A stretch of DNA of 64,000 bases from an uncultured Candidatus Rokubacteria bacterium (GTDB lineage: Bacteria; Methylomirabilota; Methylomirabilia; Rokubacteriales; DASRDR01): positions 64,001 to 128,000 of the forward strand of contig CAVPSB010000013.1 in NCBI GenBank assembly GCA_963708025.1, read 5' to 3'. The notes beneath the pieces are model-generated. The model saw nothing but the letters and a program-made list of their open reading frames with translations, did no database searches and was not told the origin of the DNA. The translations under genes were made by a program, and so were the position numbers. Positions 18,164 to 34,057 of the stretch are shown in pieces; position 1 is the stretch's first letter, and each line of letters opens with the position of its first letter.

Positions 18164-19747
18164 TCAGGAACTCCAGGGGCGCGGGGCCGAGCGCAGCGCG
18201 GCCCCGAGCGCGCCGAGGCCGAGGCACAGGACGGCGACGTGGAGCGCGGGGCCGACCAGCGGGAGCTCGAAGCCGACGAGCAGGATCGCGACCCCGAGCA
18301 CGAGCGCCGGGAGCCAGCCGCGCGGCCCGGTGCCCCGCGAGCCGAGCAGCGCGCGACCGAGCGAGGCCCCCACGACGATCTTGGCGGCGTAGAGGCCGAG
18401 CAGGTAGAGGCCGAGCGCGATCAAGGCCAGGGGCAGCCCGACCAGGGTGAGCGCGGCCAGGAGCGCGGCGACCGGCACGCCGACGAGCAGCGCCGCGCCG
18501 AGCCCCAGGCTCGGCGCCCAGGCCCGGACCGAGCGGACGCCGCGCTCGAAGAACGTCGGGACGAGCGCCCGGGCCACGCCGCCGAGCAGCAGCGCCCCGA
18601 ACAGCTGGACCCCGAGCCAGAAGTAGAACGCGGGCTCCGCGTAGACCGCGCTCCCCGGGGGCGCCACCGCCGTGTCCCGGGCCCCGGCGATGGTCGCCCC
18701 GGGCTGGATGTCGAGGTCACCGACCCGCTCGTCGCGAGGGCCGTAGAAGGAATGGGATGCTCCGACGCGCGCGAACAGGCTCCCACCGATGCGGGCCGGG
18801 GCTTGCACGGCGAGCCGATGCGCGCGGACGGTCAGGTCTCCGGTGACCGTGCCGCCCACGGTCGCGGTCGCGCCGAAGATCCACACGCCCCGGCCGACGG
18901 CGCCCGCGAGGTCCAGGCCGCGGCCGATCGCGCTCAGGTCCCCGGCGATCCGCCCGGCGGGCTCGAGACGCGTAGCGCGGTCGAGCGCGTAGACGTTGCG
19001 GGCGATCCGGCCCCGGATCACCAGCGCGCCGGTGACCGCGTAGACGTTCCCTTCGACGACGCCGGCGATCTCGGCGGTGCCGGCCACGACGATCAGGTCG
19101 CCCCGGACCGTGCCCCCGATGGCCACCGTGCGCGCGGCGACCACCAGGTCGCCGTCGACCGTCCCCGCGATCTCCACGGCGTCGCCGCTGGCTACGAGCG
19201 TGCCGCTCACCGTCTCGCCGGCGGCGACGGCCACGGTGCGCCCCGTCCGCGTCTCCAGCGCGGAGGCCGGCGAGGGGCCGATCAGCAGGGCGAGGACCAG
19301 CAGGCCGATCGCCGCCGAAGGCCGGCGGACGAGGTAGGTGGCGGCGGCGACCGTGAGCGCCAGCATGGTGAGGAGGGCCAGCGCGCTGGCGAGCGAGGCC
19401 AGGGCGCTCGCGTTCAGGACCAGGAAGAGGACCGCCTCCAGCGCGAGGCCCGGCCAGTCCACGCCGGACGGGGCGCCGGCGCCCGCCCCCCAGGCCAGGG
19501 CGCCGGCGATCGCGGCCAGACCGATCCCGGCAGCGATCCACCGCCAGACCGGGGTCGCCGCCCCCGCCGCCTCGCGCTCGGCGTCGGCCAGCACCGCTCC
19601 CAGGACGTGGTTCTCCTCGCGCAGGGCGGCCACGGTCCCCCGGCAGCGTGCACAGTCCGGGAGGTGCCGCTCGACCGCCGCCCGCTCCTCCGCGGGCAGC
19701 TCGTCGTCCGCGTACAGCGCGCAGGTCAGCTCACTGAAGCAGCTCAT
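18164..19747 (-). CDS. Zinc-binding (zf-HC2) anti-sigma factor with beta-helical/bactofilin-like extracytoplasmic repeats and a C-terminal multi-TM domain
   Basis: ERHLPDCARC (HxxxCxxC), TM segments, repeated xxIxGTVxGDLxV units and a hydrophobic C-terminus. It overlaps the sigma stop codon. Confidence 0.82.
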   Translation of the reverse strand: MSCFSELTCALYADDELPAEERAAVERHLPDCARCRGTVAALREENHVLGAVLADAEREAAGAATPVWRWIAAGIGLAAIAGALAWGAGAGAPSGVDWPGLALEAVLFLVLNASALASLASALALLTMLALTVAAATYLVRRPSAAIGLLVLALLIGPSPASALETRTGRTVAVAAGETVSGTLVASGDAVEIAGTVDGDLVVAARTVAIGGTVRGDLIVVAGTAEIAGVVEGNVYAVTGALVIRGRIARNVYALDRATRLEPAGRIAGDLSAIGRGLDLAGAVGRGVWIFGATATVGGTVTGDLTVRAHRLAVQAPARIGGSLFARVGASHSFYGPRDERVGDLDIQPGATIAGARDTAVAPPGSAVYAEPAFYFWLGVQLFGALLLGGVARALVPTFFERGVRSVRAWAPSLGLGAALLVGVPVAALLAALTLVGLPLALIALGLYLLGLYAAKIVVGASLGRALLGSRGTGPRGWLPALVLGVAILLVGFELPLVGPALHVAVLCLGLGALGAALRSAPRPWSS

Positions 19748-20319
19748 CCCGTCGTCCTCTCCGCCGTGCCGAGCCGCCGGCGCAGCTCGTGCTTGGCGCG
19801 GAAGATCAGCGTCGCCACGTGGTTGCGCTTGAGCTGAAGCTCCGCCGCGATCTGCTCGTAGCTCAGCTCGCCGTAGTACCGGAGCGCCAGGGGCACGCGG
19901 TACTGGTCCGGCAGGGCCGCCAGCGCCTCGCGCAGCGCCTCGCGCCGCTCGTCCAGCAGGAGCCGCCCGAGCGGCGACGGGGTCGGGCCCGCGGTGTCGG
20001 GGTCCGGGACCGCCTCCGCCTCGTCGCCGAGGAAGAGGCGGGGCTCGAGCCGGCGGCGCCGCAGCAGGTCCAGGCAGTAGTGGCTGACCACGGTGAGGAG
20101 CCAGCGCGGGAACGGCAGCGACGGGTCATAGGTGCGGAGCGCGCGGGGGAGCCGCAAGAACAGCTCGCCCCGGGCGTCCTCCGCGGCCTCCGGGGAGCCG
20201 AGCATGTGCCGGCAGAGGCCGTAGACCCGGCGCCCGAACTGACGGTAGAGCTCCGTCAGGGCATCCGGATCCCCCTGGCCGGCGCGGGCCACGACCCCCT
20301 CGACCTCCGTCGGTGCCAT
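19744..20319 (-). CDS. ECF RNA polymerase sigma factor (SigW-like)
   Basis: Region 2 (GDPDALTELY...AEDARGELF...FPRWLLTVVSHYCLDLLRRRR) and region 4 (LPDQYRVPLALRYYGELSYEQIA...VATLIFRAK). Confidence 0.92.
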   Translation of the reverse strand: MAPTEVEGVVARAGQGDPDALTELYRQFGRRVYGLCRHMLGSPEAAEDARGELFLRLPRALRTYDPSLPFPRWLLTVVSHYCLDLLRRRRLEPRLFLGDEAEAVPDPDTAGPTPSPLGRLLLDERREALREALAALPDQYRVPLALRYYGELSYEQIAAELQLKRNHVATLIFRAKHELRRRLGTAERTTG

Positions 20320-20347
20320 TCCCCGTCCCGGGACCCCCGCCGGGTAT

Positions 20348-20373
20348 TACGGCCGGGTGACGCCGGAGTTTCA
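20348..20373 (-). promoter_or_regulatory. ECF (SigW-type) promoter of the sigma/anti-sigma operon
   Basis: Minus strand reads TGAAAC-TCCGGCGTCACCCGGC(16)-CGTA, matching the B. subtilis SigW consensus TGAAAC-N16-CGTA. Confidence 0.75.
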
Positions 20374-20383
20374 AGCCACCGCC

Positions 20384-20409
20384 TGAAACTCCTCAGCCGG
20401 CGGGCCGTA
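20384..20409 (+). promoter_or_regulatory. ECF (SigW-type) promoter of the divergent ICMT/cyclase operon
   Basis: Plus strand reads TGAAAC-TCCTCAGCCGGCGGGC(16)-CGTA. Confidence 0.75.
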
Positions 20410-20449
20410 TACCGGAGTGAGGCCCCTCGAGGGCCCGAGGAGAACCGCC

Positions 20450-20965
20450 ATGCGCTGCCTGACGCATCCGATCCCCCGGCTCCTGGCCGCGGATCCCGGA
20501 GACCAGCCGGGCGTCATCGCCCGGCCGCCGCGCCTCTACCTCGCGTTCCTGGCCGGCGGCGTCGTCCTGGACCTCCTCTGGCCGACATCCATCCGCCCGG
20601 GCGGCGCTCCGGCCACCGCGTGGTACGGCGGCGCCGGCGCGCTGGTCGCCCTGGGTGTCGGGCTCATGGCGGCCGCCGTGCGGGCATTCGGTCGGGCGGC
20701 CACGCCGGTCGAGACGTACCGGCCCACCGCCGCCCTCGTCAGCGACGGCGTGTTCCGGCGCTCCCGCAACCCGATGTACGTCGCGCTGACCCTGATGTAT
20801 GTGGGCCTGGCGGTCGCCGCGAACAACCTCTGGCTGCTGGGGCTGCTCGTTCCCCTCCTCGCCCTGATCCGCTACGGCGTGGTCGCGCGCGAGGAGCGCT
20901 ACCTGGAGGCGAGGTTCGGCGAGCGGTACCGGACCTACCGGGCGAGGGTCCGGCGATGGCTGTGA
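20450..20965 (+). CDS. Isoprenylcysteine carboxyl methyltransferase / PEMT-family membrane protein
   Basis: PPRLY, LVSDGVFRRSRNPMYV and REERYLEARFGERYRTYRARVRRWL; GAGGAG RBS. Confidence 0.9.
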   Translation: MRCLTHPIPRLLAADPGDQPGVIARPPRLYLAFLAGGVVLDLLWPTSIRPGGAPATAWYGGAGALVALGVGLMAAAVRAFGRAATPVETYRPTAALVSDGVFRRSRNPMYVALTLMYVGLAVAANNLWLLGLLVPLLALIRYGVVAREERYLEARFGERYRTYRARVRRWL

Positions 20966-22682
20966 GCGGGGCCGAGGCGCGCGTGGACCCCGACGCGGTG
21001 GACCGCCGGCTGGCCGCCATCCTGAGCGCGGATGCCGTCGGTTACGGCGGCCTCATGGCCCGGGACGACGTGGCGACGCTCCGCACTCTCACCGCCTACC
21101 GCGAGCAGATCACGGTGCTGGTCCGCCAGCACCGGGGCCGGCTCGTCGACGCCCCGGGCGACAACCTGCTGGCCGAGTTCCCGAGCGCGCTCGAGGCGAC
21201 CCGCTGCGCCCTCGAGATCCAGCGCGTCCTGGCGGCGCGGAACGCCGGGCTCCCCGCCGAGCGCCGCATGGCGTTCCGGGTGGGCGTGCATCTCGGCGAC
21301 GTGCTCGTCGAGGGAGACCGGATCTACGGAGACGGCGTCAACCTGGCGGCGCGGCTTCAGGCCCTGGCCGAGCCGGGTGGCGTCTCGATCTCCGGCGCCG
21401 TCCACGAGCAGGTGCGCGACAAGCTGCCGGTCGGAGTCGAGGATCTCGGCGATCAGCCGATCAAGAACAGCCCCCACCCGGTGCGGGTGTACCGGCTGCC
21501 GGTGGCCTCCGACGGGCTGGCCCGGCCCGAGGGGCTTCCCGGCCTCGCCGGCCGGACCGACGTGGCGGTGCTGGTCATCCCGGCCGCCTGGGCGGCCTAC
21601 GTCGCGATCGTCTTCGAGATCCTCTTCATGATCAGCCCCTTCGCCCTCCACTACTACGCGGCCTACGGGCCGTCGCTGAACGTCCTCCACCGCTGGCGGG
21701 GGACCGCCTGGCTCACCGACTTCTTCCTGCCCCACTTCTCCCAGACCGGCAGCCCCTGGCTCGACGGGCTGCACGGGGCCGCCGCGATCCTCATCGTCAC
21801 GGGCGCGGTGGTGTTCGGTGTCGCGTTCCTCCAGGTCTACGGGGCGAAGCTCGGGAGCCGGGGCCCGGTCACCGGCGGGCTCTACGGCGTCATTCGCCAT
21901 CCCCAGTACCTGGGCCTCGCCGTCCTGGGGCTGGGCACGCTGCTGCTCTGGCCCCGGGTGCTGGTGCTGATCGCCTACCTGACGATGCTCTTCCTCTACG
22001 GCGCGCTCGCCCGCCGGGAGGAGGCCCGCTGTCTCGCCCGCTTCGGGGAGGCGTACCGGCGCTACGCTGAGCGGACGGGCCGGTTCCTCCCCGGCCGGCT
22101 CGGCGCCGGCTGGCCGCGCCTCCTGCCGGCGGCGGGTCGCCCGCGCCTGGTGGCCGCCCTCGCGCTCCAGACCGCCACGCTCGTGGCCGGTGTCGGCCTG
22201 GCCTACACGCTGCGCGACTACTCGCTGGCGCGGGTGAGCGCGCTCTACACCGAGGAGGCCGCGGTGCTCTCGCCGGCCCGCCTCGCCCCGGTGGAGCTGC
22301 GGGCGGCCCTCGAGGTCGCCCGGGCCGACGACCGGGTCCGGCAGGTGCTCGAGGCGCCCGGCGCGGGTCCGGCGGGAAGCTCCTCGTCTACGTCGTTCCG
22401 CTCGGCTGGGCGCTGCCCGACCTCCCGCTCGACGGAGCGCCGGCCGGCGGTCACGGGGGTCACGCCCACCCCGCCGACTTCGAGCGGGGGCGCTACCGGG
22501 TGCTGTTCACCCGGACCCGGACCCACCACCCGGAGAGCGCCGGACCGGCGATCGTGCGAACGGCCTACGGCCGCGAGCCGCTCGTGGTGGCGACCGTGAA
22601 CACCGAGACGCGGCAGGTGACGGGCATCGCCACGCCGCCACCCCACGTGCGCTGGGGCGACATCCCGACGCCGCTCTTTTAG
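20956..22682 (+). CDS. Class III nucleotide cyclase fused to an ICMT/PEMT-type membrane domain and a C-terminal soluble domain (one frameshift near 22370)
   Basis: Cyclase motifs RRLAAILSADAVGY, PGDNLLAEF, FRVGVHLGDV and YGDGVNLAARLQ. Then TM helices and GGLYGVIRHPQYLG...REEARCLARFGEAYRRY. After the shift: KLLVYVVP...HVRWGDIPTPLF*. Confidence 0.82.
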
Positions 22683-22795
22683 ACCGGAGGGGGCGCCTCG
22701 ACGGCCCCCCCGTCCCAGCAGTCGCCCGGGCGCCCTGGCCGGCCCGCTACGATGTTGACCCGCTCCCCCGTCCCGGCCTTCGAGCGCAACGACTC

Positions 22796-25700
22796 TCATG
22801 TCAACTCCCGCATCTCCGCCTCCGCCTGCGTCAGCCAGAAGCCCATGTCCATCTCGCGGTACATCGTGATCGCGGTTGCCAGGTGCTCGTCGCCCGTCGT
22901 GCGCTCGTCGATGCGGCGGTAGAGCTTGCCGAGGCCGAGGTGGCAGTGGGCCACGAGCGGCCGCATCCCGAGCTCGGTGGCGAGGGCGAGAGCCTGGCGG
23001 TAGTGGCCCTCGGCGGTCTCGGCGTCGAGCGGATCGCCTCGGGAGGCGATCTCGCCCAGGAGCCGGAGGGCATAGGCCTCGTGGCCCCGTTGACCCCGTT
23101 CGCGCGTCAGTGCCAGGGCCCGCCCGGCCATGGCCCGTGCCTCCTCCAGCCGCCCGGCGACGATGTACGCCTCGCCGAGATCCACGAGAAATTTCGAGAG
23201 ATAGATGCCCGTCCCAAAGGGTTCGCGAGCCTCCTGGGCCCATCGCAGCAGGTCGAGGCCCTCCGCCACTCGCCCCGACCGCACGAGGACATCGCCCAGG
23301 ACCCCCGCGTTATGCACCGACAGATTGAGGATGTGGGCCTCGCGCGACACCGCGAGCCCGCGTTCGAGCAGGCGGACGGCCTGGCTGAAGTCCCCCTTGA
23401 GCCCGTGCAGGTACCCAAGCAGCCAGGTCGCCATGCCCAGGCTGCCCGCGTGACCGAGCGCTTCGGCGAGGCGGATTGCGTCCTGCCCGTACGCGAGACC
23501 GTGGGCGAAGGCGCCGCGTTCGGCCAGGGCTCGCGTCAGCCAGGCCCGGGACAGCACGGCGGGGAACCCGTGCAGACCGCAGCGCTCGCGAGCCAGATCG
23601 CCGTCGAGTGACCGCACGACCTCCCCGAGCAGGTCCTCGGCCCGCCGATAGTCCCCGACGTCGATGCAGGCCGTGCCCAGCAGGAATGTCGCCGCGACCT
23701 GGAGGGGGACATCCGCCAGCGTCTGGCCGATCGCCCGCGCCTGCTCGGCGCACGTCCGCTGGGGCGTGGCTTCATCCATGGAAAAGAAATTCTGGCTCAT
23801 GTGGAGGTGGACCCAGCCGAGCCGCCGGAGATCATCGAGCGTCCGGACCAGGCGTTCGGCCTGGCGAAGCAACTCCGCGCACCGCCCGACTTCTCCAAGC
23901 AGGAAGAGCACATTGCGAAGATCGAACCGCAGATCGATGCCCTGCTCGGCCGTCTCGCGCGTCTCCGGCAGATGCGCCAACGCGTTCAGCGCCTGCTCGA
24001 AGCAGGTGGCCGATTCCCGGTTGGCCGATGCCGCGAACGCCTTGGCCCCCGCCTGGCGGAGGTAGCGCACGGCCTTCTCCCACACCTCACCCCGGGTCGC
24101 GTGGTGGGCCAGCCGCTCCACGTGCTCGGCCAGACGGCCGGCGTAGAGCGCTTCGCTGGCCTCGACGATCCGGGCGTGGAGGGCGCGCCGCCGCTCCTGG
24201 AGCAGGCTGCCGTACGCCACCTCGTGGGTCAGGGCGTGCTTGAAGGTGTACTCGAGGTCGGGAAACAGGCGAGCCTCGTAGAGAAACTCGCCGGCCTGGA
24301 GGGTGGCGAGACTGTGCCGCAGGACGTCCTCGGGAACCTCCGCGATCGCCTGGAGGACGGCAAAGGGCACATCCTTGCCGATGACCGCGGCCGCCTGGAG
24401 GAGGCGCTTCTCCTCGGCCGCGAGCCGGTCGATCCGCGCGGCCAGGACCGCCTGGACCGTCGCCGGGACCTGGATGCTCGGGAGCGCGTGGGCGAGGCGA
24501 TAGGCGCCGCGCTCCCCGGTCAGCACCTTGGTCTCCACGAGCGTGCGGACGCTCTCCTCCAGGAAGAACGGGTTCCCCTCGGTGCGCGCGATCAGGAGCT
24601 GCTTGAGCGGCCGAAGGGCGGGGTCCGCGCCCACGAGCGCATCCAGCAGGGCCTCGGCGCTCTCGGGCGGCAGGGGGTCGAGCCGGAGCTGGGTGTAGTA
24701 CGTCTTGCTGCCCCAGCGATGCGTGTACTCGGGGCGGTAGTTCACGAGGAGGAGCATCCGGGCCGCCGGCAGGCTCTCGACCAGACTGTCCAGGACCGCC
24801 TGGGTCTCGCCGTCGACCCAGTGGAGGTCCTCGAGGACGACGAGCAGCGGCTGGACCTGGCTCTCGCGCAGGAGCAGACGCTTGACCGCGTCCAGGGTCC
24901 GCTGGCGGCGCTGCGGCGGGTCGAGCGCCGACCATGCGGCGTCGTCCACCGGCACGTCCAGCAGCGCCAGGAACGCCGGCACCGTGGGCTTGAGGGCCTC
25001 GTCCAGCGTCAGGAGCTTGCCGGTGACCTTCTCGCGGACGGCCCGCGGATCGTCCTGGTCTTGAATCTTCAAGTAGCCCTTGAGCAGGTCGATCACGGGT
25101 AGATACGGCGTGGCCTTGCCGTAGGAGACCGAGCTGGCCTGCACGCTGAGCCAGCCGTGGGTCCGGTGGGAGTGGGTGACCTCCCACACCAGCCGCGACT
25201 TGCCCACGCCGGGCTCCCCGACCAGGGCCACGAGCTGGCCATGCCCCGCGGCGGCGCGGCCGAGCGCCTGGCGGAGCTGCTCGACCTCGGTCTCCCGCCC
25301 GACGAAGCGCGTGAGCCCGCGCGCGGCGGCGGCCTGGAGGCGCGACCGCACGGGGCCCGCTCCCAGCATCTCGTAGACCTCGACGGGCGCCTCCAGGCCC
25401 TTGATCGGCACCGGTCCGACGGGCTTGACGGCGACGAAGCCTTCGGCGAGGCGCAGCGTGTCCGCGGTCAGGAGGGTGGTGCCGGCGCTGGCGAGTTGCT
25501 CCATGCGGGCCGCGAGGTGGGTGGTCTGTCCCACCGCCGTGTAGTCCATCCGGAGGTCGCTCCCGATGGCCCGCACGACGACCTCCCCCGAGTTCAGCCC
25601 GACGCGAATCTCCGTCAGGATTCCGTGGGTGCGCCGAACCTCCTCGGCGTACCGCCGGATCGCCGCCTGCATGTCGAGCGCGGCATAGCAGGCGCGCACC

Positions 25701-26160
25701 GCATGGTCCTCGTGGGCGAGGGGGCGCCGAAGAGCGCCATGATCCCGTCGCCCATGACCTGGTTGACGGTGCCCTCGTAGCGGTGGACCGCCTCCATCAT
25801 GCGTTCGAGCACGGGATCGAGGAGCTTCCGGGCCTCCTCGGGGTCGCGGTCGGCCAGCAACTCCATGGAGCCCTTGAGGTCGGCGAAGAGCACGGTGACC
25901 TGCTTGCGCTCGCCTTCGAGGGCGCTCTTCGAGGTGAGGATCTTCTCGGCGAGGTGCTGGGGGGTGTAGGACTGCGGAGAGGCGAACCGTGCCGGCTCGG
26001 TCCCGTGACTGTCGGTCGGCTTCCCGCAATCAAGGCAGAACTTGGCGCCAGCAGGCAACGGGGTGCCGCACTGGGCGCAGGCGACGGCGAACCGGACTCC
26101 GCACTCCAGACAGAACTTCGCTTGCGGCGGGTTCTCGTGCTGGCACCGGGGACACTGCAT
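22796..26160 (-). CDS. Double zinc ribbon + class III cyclase + STAND/AAA ATPase + TPR protein (one frameshift near 25722)
   Basis: CPRC...CLEC...CAQC...CLDC; ERKQVTVLFADLKGS, MGDGIMALFG; GEPGVGKS (Walker A), VLEDLHWVD; GNPFFLEE; TPR-like helical C-terminus. The indel lies in a G/C homopolymer. Confidence 0.9.
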
Positions 26161-32635: not shown

Positions 32636-32728
32636 CTAGTGCCGTTCCAACTTGTTCGAGGAATGCGGCGAGTCCGTGCTTCAAGAATCGCTTGCCCATT
32701 TTGGCTCATGTAGTTGGAACGGCACTAG
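32636..32728. mobile_element. 93-bp miniature inverted-repeat element (MITE) with CTAG ends
   Basis: Perfect 17-bp inverted repeats CTAGTGCCGTTCCAACT (32636-32652) and AGTTGGAACGGCACTAG (32712-32728) around an AT-richer core. Confidence 0.75.
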
Positions 32729-32787
32729 GCAAGGGCCCCCGGATGCTCTACTATCGCGACACCGAACGCACCAGGGAGGAGACTGCA

Positions 32788-34057
32788 ATGCGGCTCCAGC
32801 GAATGGTCGTGCTCATCGTCGCGACGGTCAGCGTCGCCGTCGCGCCGGCGGCCTCCGCCCAGCCGTCGTGTCCGATCAAGCTCGGGGGCATCCTGTCGCT
32901 GACCGGGTCGCTCGGCGCGGTGGGGAAACCCATCGCCGACACGGCCCGGATGGCCGTCGAGCACGTCAACGCCGCCGGAGGCGTCAAGGGCTGCCCGGTC
33001 GAGTTCATCCTCCGGGACGACCAGGGCCAGTCCACCGTCGGCGTGGACGCCGCCAAGAATTTGGTGGACGTCCAGGGGGTCCCGGCCCTGATCGGCGCCA
33101 TCAGCAGCGGGGTGAGCCTGCCGATCCTGAGCTCGGTCGCGGTCCCGGCGAAGGTCGTCATGGTGTCGTGCTGCTCCACGTCGCCGACCTTCACCACGCT
33201 GGCCCAGGAGGGGAAGACGGGCGGCTACTGGTTCCGGACCATCCCGACCACCAAGACGATGGCCTACGCGGCCGCCCAGCTGGCCGCCCAGCGGGGCTAC
33301 CGGAAGGTCGCGGTGATCTACGTCAACACCGACTTCGGGGTGAACCTGGGCAAGGATTTCGCCCGGGCCATGCAGAAGCTCGGCGGCTCGGTGGTCGTCT
33401 CGATCCCCTACCAGGAGAACCAGCCCTCGTACCGGGCCGAGGTGAGCCGCGCGCTCGCCGCCAGCCCCGACTCGGCCTACCTCATCGCCTTCCCCCAGGA
33501 TGGCGCCACCCTGGCCCGCGAATGGCTCTCGTTCGGCGGCACCCAGAGCCTCCTCCTCAACAACGCCCTCCGCGCCGACCAGTTCGTCAAGGCGGTGGGC
33601 GCCCGGTTCCTCCAGAACGCCTACGGCATGGATTCCGCCCAGGTCTCCGGGCCCTCGGTCGAACGCCTTCAACCAGGCCTTCCAGGCCAAGTTCGGCGCG
33701 GCCCCCAACGGCCCCGGGCTCCACAGCGTCTACGACGCCGTCGTCGTGGTGGCGCTGGCCATGCAGGCGTCGAAGACGATCAGCGGAACCGAGATTCGCG
33801 ACAACATCCGGCGCGTGACGGCCCCGGGCGGCGCCCCGGTCTCGACCGGTGTGGAGAGTATCCGGCGGGGCCTCGAGCTGCTCAGGAGCGGCCAGGCCGT
33901 CCGTTACGCCGGCGCCACCGGACCCGTCCAGTTCGACGAGCACGGCGACGTGTCCGGGCCGGCCCTGATCTGGCGGATCAAGGATGAGCAGATCGTGACC
34001 GACCGGCAGATCCCCCTCGAGGAGATGCAAGCGCTCTTCAAGCAGATCGACGGATAG
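32788..34057 (+). CDS. LIV-family ABC substrate-binding protein (frameshift near 33663)
   Basis: Signal peptide, IKLGGILSLTG, VNAAGGV and GAISSGV. The C-terminus YDAVV...YAGATGPVQFDEHGDV is in a second frame. Confidence 0.88.

Follow-up and report, generated by a model that had tools for sequence, protein, structure and literature searches.

A class III nucleotide cyclase fused to an ICMT-type membrane methyltransferase in an uncultured Rokubacteria bacterium

Proteins in which an N-terminal class III nucleotide cyclase is followed by tetratricopeptide repeats (TPR) or a TolB-like part are among the closest described relatives of the product of a fusion gene found in an uncultured Candidatus Rokubacteria bacterium (GenBank assembly GCA_963708025.1, contig CAVPSB010000013.1). 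The gene starts at position 20956 of the window, which is the whole stretch of 64,000 nucleotides analysed here (positions 64,001 to 128,000 of the contig, G+C content ~73 %) and to which all coordinates refer. The cyclase has the same position in the cyclase-TPR proteins as in the fusion, the window domain is 50-68 % identical to theirs, and most of them share its Asp/Arg pair at the two sites that specify the base. The difference lies in the C-terminal partner, which in the fusion is a polytopic methyltransferase of the ICMT fold together with a predicted periplasmic domain. One protein with an N-terminal cyclase and TPR, Xanthomonas XC_0250, has non-canonical residues and makes cGMP, not cAMP, according to the portions of the report available (PMC3770947). 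XC_0250 is likened to the fusion by description, and its own residues, as given in those portions, are Ala at a specifying site and Leu and Ala at the transition-state sites.

On the membrane side, Ma-ICMT (PDB 4a2n) and the eukaryotic ICMT/Ste14 enzymes (5v7p, 5vg9) have a five-helix core and a C-terminal cofactor sub-domain in common with the fusion. Features of the fused core family that ICMT lacks are an additional first helix and outward loop, both highly conserved, a sixth segment and a periplasmic domain. Three named functions were considered and rejected on profile scores. For protein-S-isoprenylcysteine O-methyltransferase proper (NCBIfam NF040696, isopcys_mtase), the fusion reaches 46.9 bits and the small methyltransferase gene that precedes it 47.8 bits, against a cut-off of 160, and protein prenylation, which would provide the ICMT-type substrate, is not known to be a normal bacterial process. 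The methanethiol S-methyltransferase MddA (NF045656) gives 15.4 bits for the window and 25 bits for P0002, a full-length fused relative (63 % identity), against a cut-off of 270, and the lipid A 1-phosphate methyltransferase LmtA gives 30-40 bits against 325. MddA and LmtA belong to the same superfamily, and show that its bacterial members can methylate small thiols or lipids.

In receptor-type class III cyclases, namely Rv1625c, the mammalian adenylate cyclases and Sinorhizobium meliloti CyaC, the dimeric cyclase has its activity set by a membrane domain to which lipids or cofactors bind, as described in the accessible parts of the sources (PMC11606603, PMC12505454, PMC10463352). The first two of these, in the same parts, present the membrane domains of class III cyclases as lipid receptors (PMC11606603, PMC12505454). 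Any likeness to the fusion would be one of analogy: the receptor-type cyclases have the anchor first and a conserved helical transducer, whereas here the cyclase comes first and is followed by a floppy tether and an anchor with an enzyme fold.

The fusion was first noticed in a description of the window made from its sequence alone (the original prediction), which called the architecture unrecognised. This stands in so far as our literature search, in which supplements were outside the scope, found no paper on the fusion, on its 371-aa membrane core family or on the Asp/Arg cyclase subfamily. It does not stand for the databases, where JGI had already applied the automatic name 'class 3 adenylate cyclase/protein-S-isoprenylcysteine O-methyltransferase Ste14' to several of the matching proteins. 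Databases list the fusion under automatic names alone, and its biochemistry is unexplored.

Structure of the locus and of the encoded protein

The locus is a two-gene operon: a small PEMT/ICMT-type methyltransferase gene comes first and shows translational coupling to the second, which encodes a membrane protein of three parts. Its features are as follows.

20450 to 20965, plus strand: small stand-alone PEMT/ICMT-type membrane methyltransferase, 171 aa (Pfam PEMT, E 3.6e-16)
20956 to 22370, plus strand: fusion gene, in-frame part, ~470 codons; its ATG overlaps the stop of the small gene (55-63 % identity to full-length fused relatives)
21016 to 21465, plus strand: class III nucleotide cyclase catalytic domain, residues 21-170 (Pfam Guanylate_cyc, 29.1 bits)
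21499 to 21549, plus strand: tether at the junction of cyclase and membrane part, Ala/Pro/Arg/Gly-rich and unconserved (alignment of 53 fusions; model pLDDT <50)
21550 to 22095, plus strand: ICMT-fold membrane methyltransferase domain with the cofactor motif RHPQY...REE...FG..Y..Y (Pfam PEMT, 27.6 bits)
22141 to 22212, plus strand: fifth membrane helix, predicted to take the chain across the membrane (helix 394-424 of the P0002 model; Lys/Arg distribution)
22354 to 22371, plus strand: frameshift site, with two surplus bases relative to close relatives (contigs of other runs; P0062 unbroken)
22371 to 22682, plus strand: remaining part of the alpha+beta C-terminal domain, read in the shifted frame up to WGDIPTPLF and stop (translation; 81 % identity to the P0062 C-terminus)

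A single frame is open from ATG 20956 through both the Guanylate_cyc match (residues 21-170) and the PEMT match (residues 293-361), as had been claimed; this ATG sits within a mechanical plus-strand open reading frame (ORF), 19789-22599. The stand-alone gene in front of it, said to overlap the fusion start, does so: its TGA (20963-20965) and the fusion ATG overlap inside ATGGCTGTGA. The mechanical ORF of this small gene runs from GTG 20417 to 20965, and the likely start is ATG 20450, which has gaggag before it. The full-length fused relatives comprise ~565-575 aa and are unbroken to ...WGDIPTP(L/M)F.

The cyclase domain exceeds the Guanylate_cyc (PF00211) cut-off of 21.9 bits, and contains the motifs ILSADAVGY, VDAPGDN and GDRIYGDGVNLAARL. 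The metal-binding Asp residues lie in SADAVGY and PGDN, and the transition-state Asn and Arg in GVNLAAR. These residues were predicted to be intact, and are read in the window as well as across 53 fusions, where each metal Asp is found in 53/53, the Arg in 53/53 and the Asn in 50/53; this conservation argues for catalysis. PDB 3mr7 matches the window cyclase with E 3.9e-39 (phmmer), and the cyclase in the model of the homologue P0002, not of the window protein itself, superimposes on 3mr7 with a target TM-score of 0.91 (root mean square deviation 1.7 over 168 columns).

The canonical base-specifying pairs are Lys/Asp for ATP and a Glu/Cys type for GTP. Aligned to 3mr7, the window has Asp in place of the Lys of ivKttGD and Arg in place of the Asp of gDifGD, so the canonical pair is absent and the residues are those given in the original prediction. 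Among the 53 fusions, the first site is Asp in 42, Gly in seven, Lys in two and Glu in two, and the second is Arg in 36, Gln in seven, Glu in four, Lys in two, Asp in two, Cys in one and Thr in one. The two sites co-vary, with mostly Asp-Arg, then Gly-Gln and Gly-Glu, and with Lys-Asp in P0063 and P0065. However, the pair extends well beyond the fusion. A search of representative proteins with the cyclase domain returned 6306 proteins at E up to 1e-30, and the Asp/Arg pair was found in 85 domain matches among the 147 best cluster representatives. The 45 closest cyclase relatives scanned have as partner TPR (30), none (nine), PD40 (two), or MlaC, an alpha/beta hydrolase, CHAT+AAA_16 or Trans_reg_C (a winged helix-turn-helix domain) in one each. 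Judged from these comparisons, Asp/Arg is the commonest pair in a very large, mostly TPR-fused cyclase subfamily and no hallmark of the methyltransferase fusion, and the cyclase appears to be a portable output module whose closest relatives bear other C-terminal partners.

The membrane part of the fusion exceeds the cut-off for Pfam PEMT (PF04191; 25 bits) and, at 21.4 bits, remains below that for ICMT (PF04140; 24 bits). The motif reported in the earlier description, G.Y..IRHPQY...EE..L..FG..Y, is present (GLYGVIRHPQY...REEARCLARFGEAYRRY) and aligns to Ma-ICMT. The R, H, P, Q, Y and the first Glu of EE are invariant in 50 stand-alone members of the core family and are kept in the fusions, and a profile of the stand-alone family matches 4a2n with E 3.9e-10 over GxY..RHPxY...EE...FG..Y..Y. 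An invariant Cys follows shortly after the EE motif in the core family (EE.RC, in the cytoplasmic cofactor sub-domain), where Ma-ICMT has Leu.

P0002 was modelled from the alignment of 53 fusions with a mean pLDDT of 81.6. The cyclase (residues 6-173) and an alpha+beta domain (residues 427-571) are confident, residues 176-225 have pLDDT <50, and helices are placed at 200-224, 266-298, 315-330, 334-362 and 394-424. The stand-alone family member P0075 (371 aa) gave a pLDDT of 87.6 and a pTM of 0.84, and the fold Z-scores of the membrane part of its model are 11.8 for the sterol reductase 4quv, 9.8 for eukaryotic ICMT 5vg9 and 9.2 for Ma-ICMT 4a2n. Foldseek assigned the ICMT fold a probability of 1.00, with an E value of just 0.014. 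The tether comprises 17-42 residues in the 53 fusions, mostly 23-25, and its mean column conservation is 0.30 versus 0.74-0.76 in the flanking domains. The most conserved parts of the whole protein are loop 1 (0.85) and the last 20 residues (0.83).

Lys and Arg residues per 10 residues number 2.2-2.4 in the N-tail and loop 2, 1.7 in the C-helices and 0.30 in loop 1, and the C-domain is net acidic. This composition and the homology to ICMT predict an inside location for the RHPxY loop, the helices that follow EE and the N-terminus together with the cyclase attached to it, and an outside location for loop 1 and the C-terminal domain. The original prediction placed a soluble domain with GGHGGHAH after a frameshift; the frameshift and the GGHGGHAH stretch are there, but the domain follows a further membrane helix and is probably periplasmic. 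GGHGGHAH itself is in a variable, lower-confidence loop, whereas the end motif WGDIPTP(L/M)F is almost invariant and is kept in both fused and stand-alone families. The C-terminal piece of the window matched no Pfam or NCBIfam family, and a search of the ESM Atlas with the domain (P0075 residues 228-371) gave no usable match. Fold likeness to the N-terminal domains of copper amine oxidases (Z 5.9, Foldseek E ~0.03) and to a designed cystatin (Z 4.8) is weak; a relationship to either was rejected, and the scores were taken as reflecting a common alpha+beta arrangement. The protein is composed of a cytoplasmic cyclase, an unconserved tether of ~25 residues, a five-helix ICMT-fold domain and a C-terminal alpha+beta domain predicted to lie on the opposite side of the membrane.

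Distribution and repeated origin of the fusion

The fusion is not a singleton. A domain-architecture check against a large protein collection found a cyclase family together with PEMT, ICMT or DUF1295 in 62 of the 120 best listed hits, a count that includes the window's own product. In a metagenome scan, in which 80 loci were kept out of 252 confirmed, 47 of the 80 encode the whole fusion. In genomes, with one genome per species, it is present in 3 of 55 loci, belonging to two metagenome-assembled genomes labelled Deltaproteobacteria and one labelled uncultured. The genome of the window (8.17 Mb, 49 contigs, completeness 99.67, contamination 8.18) has a single copy. Distribution of the fusion is patchy and far from that of a singleton. 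Sequencing runs with related sequence are labelled soil, sediment, cave and others; as shares do not exceed 0.37 and four runs were aligned, no habitat is claimed. The membrane module is far more widespread without the cyclase than fused to it, and the stand-alone family of ~371 aa is found in Methylomirabilota, Acidobacteriota, Gemmatimonadota, KSB1, Latescibacterota, Bacteroidota, Methylococcaceae and others.

Two trees bear on how often the cyclase and the module were joined. In the tree of the membrane core (IQ-TREE quick, 45 rows selected from 123), the fused P0063 and P0065, remote from the main fused clade, are joined first by L016, a stand-alone core (support 100), and then by P0088, also stand-alone (support 97). 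L016 is truly stand-alone, being a 379-aa ORF after an unrelated upstream gene. The best tree uniting all 19 fused rows is 397 log-likelihood units worse (p-AU 5.4e-5), a test in which the group was named after a first tree was seen and part of the rejection is driven by stand-alone rows nested in the fused clade, which may be losses. The cyclase-domain tree comprises 111 rows, about a quarter of the unfused Asp/Arg domains having been retained, and unites P0063 and P0065 with unfused cyclases of the Lys/Asp type (support 96). P0066 is in a different clade (support 98), though its membrane core is close to that of P0032, and the main fused group is intermixed with TPR-type Asp/Arg cyclases. 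Judged by these trees, cyclases of at least three lineages have come to occupy the N-terminal end of the membrane module, and we regard repeated joining to one module as the strongest sign that the two parts work together.

Two longer forms of the core were recovered. P0090 (753 aa) has an unrelated, unannotated N-terminal domain of ~370 residues on the core, and P0034 (850 aa) has a short-chain dehydrogenase ahead of the whole fusion. The idea that the core is a promiscuous sensor joined to many outputs was dropped, as just these two were found.

Promoters and gene neighbourhoods

The following features adjoin the operon.

18164 to 19747, minus strand: anti-sigma factor gene, overlapping the end of the sigma gene (Pfam zf-HC2, E 5.5e-7; Bactofilin, E 2.5e-7)
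19744 to 20319, minus strand: ECF-type sigma-70 gene with ATG at 20319, divergent from the methyltransferase operon (Pfam Sigma70_r2, E 5.1e-15; Sigma70_r4_2, E 1.8e-13)
20348 to 20372, minus strand: ECF-type promoter motif, GAAACTCC-N10-GGCCGTA, ahead of the sigma gene (pattern scans of window and genome)
20385 to 20409, plus strand: the same motif ahead of the small PEMT gene and the fusion, 41 bases upstream of ATG 20450

The sigma factor scores 101.8 bits against the NCBIfam model for extracytoplasmic function (ECF) sigma factors (sigma70-ECF, cut-off 42.9), and the anti-sigma factor has an N-terminal zinc-finger domain (HLPDCARC), several membrane helices and a bactofilin-like repeat domain. 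The latter protein is unusually large and polytopic, with the bactofilin-like repeats sandwiched by groups of membrane helices. The promoter motifs sit in the 97-base region between the sigma and PEMT genes, one copy in each direction. GAAAC-N15-18-CGTA has just these 2 matches in the 64-kb window, where 0.23 are expected and 2 of 100 shuffles reached two, and GAAACTC-N10-13-GCCGTA has just 2 matches in the 8.17-Mb genome, both here, with 0 for the reversed control. ECF promoters have a consensus of AAC at -35 and CGT at -10, and the spacing here agrees. A sigma operon that regulates itself and shares its promoter type with a divergent target is a classic pattern. The ECF control that had been proposed is predicted from the motif unique to this divergent region, a sigma factor with regions 2 and 4 only, and the adjacent anti-sigma factor. 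A scan of 19600-23000 for sigma-70 promoters found no promoter-like site, and the one terminator-like site found in the same interval is inside the gene on the other strand and was disregarded. Other fused loci have PadR, MarR or MerR regulators instead, with one ECF fragment in L074, so ECF control belongs to this lineage and not to the family.

Zinc-finger-type anti-sigma factors include mycobacterial RslA, the partner of SigL. According to the available part of the source (PMC4105308), SigL of M. tuberculosis controls a small regulon, among whose products are a thiol-disulfide oxidoreductase and, from the Rv1139c-Rv1138c pair, a membrane protein with an ICMT motif. An ECF sigma factor, an anti-sigma factor (here zf-HC2) and ICMT genes are common to both systems, as far as that part describes them, and thioredoxin-like neighbours are found in four loci of the core family; the SigL system as described there has no cyclase. 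ICMT genes in copper clusters (PMC8478169, in the part available) were also considered as a lead on stress-linked ICMTs, and the lead was dropped since nothing copper-related is near the window locus.

Pairing with a second small ICMT/PEMT gene, as seen in the window, recurs on the same strand in 22 of the 47 fused metagenome loci. The small gene is downstream by 30-258 bases in 11, upstream by 46-255 in five, and upstream with an intervening class I methyltransferase gene in six; it is also on the same strand in four stand-alone metagenome loci. The window's small PEMT can be aligned in its entirety with the partner gene of fused metagenome loci, at 40 % identity, and both end in ...VRRWL. 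Further neighbours in the metagenome loci, some recurrent and some seen once, are MarR (15 loci), class I S-adenosylmethionine (SAM) methyltransferases, GST, CYTH, PadR, MerR, glyoxalase, MerC and C13-peptidase/PDZ genes. One fused locus, L086 (1672-6420), has a gene for a Crp-type regulator (cNMP_binding and HTH_Crp_2) and a MarR gene divergent from an operon of PEMT, class I methyltransferase and fusion. The genome of the window has 17 matches to the cyclic nucleotide (cNMP)-binding domain and 19 to the cyclase domain, and therefore has readers for a cyclic-nucleotide signal.

The genome loci of the core family include MarR-like genes in nine, small PEMT genes in four and the window, secreted thioredoxin-like genes in four, AraC regulators with a multi-helix membrane N-terminus in eight and, in six, winged-helix proteins resembling ToxR/CadC, each with a single membrane helix and a conserved Cys in its short outward tail. 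The membrane AraC-type regulator is directly upstream of the core in L021, L031, L032, L035, L042, L043 and L049, and a TlpA-like thioredoxin gene is downstream in L021, L035 and L042, and also in L037. The ToxR/CadC-like regulators adjoin stand-alone cores in L007, L009, L028, L039 and L040, and their outward tail of ~40 residues contains a conserved Asp/Glu-Cys; they could be partners of the periplasmic domain of the core. The neighbourhoods point to a setting of stress and detoxification, which by itself does not discriminate a sensor from a regulated enzyme.

A convergent gene downstream of the fusion (22796-26160, minus strand) encodes a protein with a double zinc ribbon, a class III cyclase, an AAA_16 ATPase and TPR, which resembles NCBIfam TOMM_kin_cyc (318 bits, under the cut-off of 705). 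A database protein of 217 aa, P0161, is 95 % identical to residues 4-126 of the window cyclase and departs from it after GDRIY, and its N-terminus is a zinc ribbon resembling that of this large downstream cyclase. Recombination between the two adjacent cyclase genes could have given rise to P0161, as could a contig of a close relative that is broken or chimeric.

Proposed working and its alternatives

We propose that the state of the membrane module is reported as a cyclic nucleotide, and put the probability of this coupled working at roughly 0.4-0.5. The membrane module would be a stress-inducible, SAM-dependent methyltransferase acting on a lipophilic acceptor of the envelope or of xenobiotic origin, and loop 1, the C-terminal domain and the tail, which make up the conserved outward face of the module, would bind a substrate, a ligand or a partner. 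Activity in class III cyclases requires dimerisation. The state of the module, either occupancy by substrate or ligand at the periplasmic face or its oligomeric state, would set the pairing of two tethered cyclase domains, such that cyclic nucleotide would be made while the membrane chemistry runs, and would be read by receptors of the Crp type. The product could be cAMP or another cNMP, as the Asp/Arg pair is not decisive.

Several observations weigh against this working. The tether is short, unconserved and has pLDDT <50, so that a rigid allosteric link is unlikely and coupling may be mere co-localisation. No match spanning both halves was found in 40 related genomes (the unpublished G038 included), where G012, G020 and G039 have a match to the membrane part alone, and this lineage therefore does not need the fusion. 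Longer forms of the core are rare, with only the two described above found by the search. L086 is the sole fused locus with an adjoining cNMP receptor, most contigs being too short to show one, and the regulators that adjoin the cores are equally explained if the gene is the inducible enzyme that they control. Finally, the contigs used below to judge the reading frame are ~90-99 % identical to the window and come from relatives, and are no proof of an intact gene in this strain.

Two alternatives concern the sequence itself, and were examined using assembled contigs of four public runs from four studies aligned to 20300-22800, most pieces being 90-99 % identical. That the fusion is a chimera of assembly, for which there is nothing beyond the evident indel errors of the assembly, is scarcely credible. 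The junction at ~21500-21550, which the original prediction had singled out for checking, is spanned by contigs of three other studies (X1 record 3, 20726-21953; X6 record 17, 20300-22363; and X7 record 27, 20687-22682), and the same arrangement is encoded in the 47 metagenome loci and three species genomes. The frameshift before the conserved C-terminus, also noted earlier, is present in the assembly: the fusion frame turns to low complexity after ...RVRQVLEAPGAG, and GGKLLVYVVPLGW...GGHGGHAH...WGDIPTPLF and stop are in the frame of 22371-22682, so that the shifted reading covers the last 103 codons of the fusion. The partial relative P0062 (84 % identity) is unbroken across the site (...LEARG..GGKLLVYVVPLGW...). 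The contigs that cross 22354-22362, two from X1 and one each from X4 and X7, are two bases shorter there than the window, with two bases left out together or one and one, and with two bases fewer 22371 enters the frame of 20956; the long X6 contig stops at 22363 and is uninformative. Two further genes in the window are split by frameshifts, namely the convergent cyclase gene, in which Guanylate_cyc profile positions 6-72 are in ORF 25618-26160 and 72-179 in ORF 22799-26029, and a periplasmic binding protein gene (32692-34057, plus strand), which is split into two overlapping frames. With three broken genes within 64 kb, as indels in the assembly would give, the two surplus bases are probably an artefact. 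If they were real, the gene would be a true pseudogene and its protein would be without the last two thirds of the periplasmic domain. The assembly itself reads so, the shorter contigs stem from related strains and not necessarily from this one, and the fusion is dispensable in all 40 related genomes searched. However, the shifted piece has kept an open frame throughout and shares 81 % identity with P0062, and we consider a pseudogene improbable.

The remaining alternatives accept the protein and differ in what it does. It may be bifunctional without any coupling, with the fusion merely securing co-expression and placing at the membrane, and the cyclic nucleotide reporting that the ECF regulon is on. 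The disordered, unconserved tether is the main argument for this, control is visible at the level of the promoter, and the core is apparently a complete enzyme alone in most lineages. Yet co-expression alone is a poor explanation for three cyclase lineages on the same end of the same module, as an operon would suffice, and the length of the tether is narrowly kept (17-42, mostly 23-25); we find an uncoupled protein rather unlikely, if a serious contender. A separate question is whether the cyclase-like domain is an adenylate cyclase at all, or makes cGMP or a pyrimidine cyclic nucleotide, or only binds a nucleotide. The replacement of Lys/Asp by Asp/Arg was confirmed, both specifying positions co-vary, and XC_0250, with its non-canonical residues, yields cGMP and not cAMP in the available portion of its report (PMC3770947). 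Against this, some fusions keep Lys/Asp, so the module demands no special nucleotide. The literature search found no assay of a member of the Asp/Arg subfamily. Cyclases with deviant pairs are able to use ATP, as for Rv1900c and Rv0386. The non-ATP specificity that had been suggested from the Asp/Arg pair stays a guess, because the pair is common in other cyclases and P0063 and P0065 have the canonical one, and we rate a domain that is not an adenylate cyclase as possible, at somewhat less than even odds. An anti-phage cyclase of the Pycsar kind with a membrane effector part is very improbable: PADLOC gave weak matches to PycC models (14-26 bits), but such scores are typical of any class III cyclase, no cNMP-binding effector was found among the window neighbours scanned, and the neighbourhoods contain stress and detoxification genes and no defence islands.

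In a bolder form of the coupled working, the 371-aa core, with its ICMT-fold domain, conserved outward loop and periplasmic domain ending WGDIPTP(L/M)F, would use an enzyme fold as the basis of a hitherto unrecognised kind of transmembrane sensor, which would read a lipophilic or periplasmic compound or the state of SAM and S-adenosylhomocysteine. Its outputs would differ between lineages, being the cyclase, fused at least three times, or the adjoining ToxR/CadC-like or AraC regulators, and the product of the Asp/Arg cyclases would be other than cAMP. We consider this doubtful.

From bacteria to man, cAMP and cGMP are made mainly by class III cyclases. If the bolder, sensor form of the coupled working is true, bacteria would gain a 'methyltransferase-receptor' route into cyclic-nucleotide signalling. 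The role of the membrane parts of cyclases is a standing question of the field, and here that part has a recognisable enzyme fold and an intact cofactor site. With at least three separate attachments, the fusion would be a direct and testable case of a membrane reaction or substrate reported as a second messenger. The analysis also brings into view a widespread, unnamed family of ~371 aa, which has a conserved outward face and whose genes adjoin those of membrane-bound regulators; the very large subfamily of Asp/Arg cyclases, for which no product appears ever to have been measured; and the tight link, through promoters, of ICMT-type genes to an ECF sigma factor, reminiscent of the mycobacterial SigL regulon as far as the available part of its description goes.

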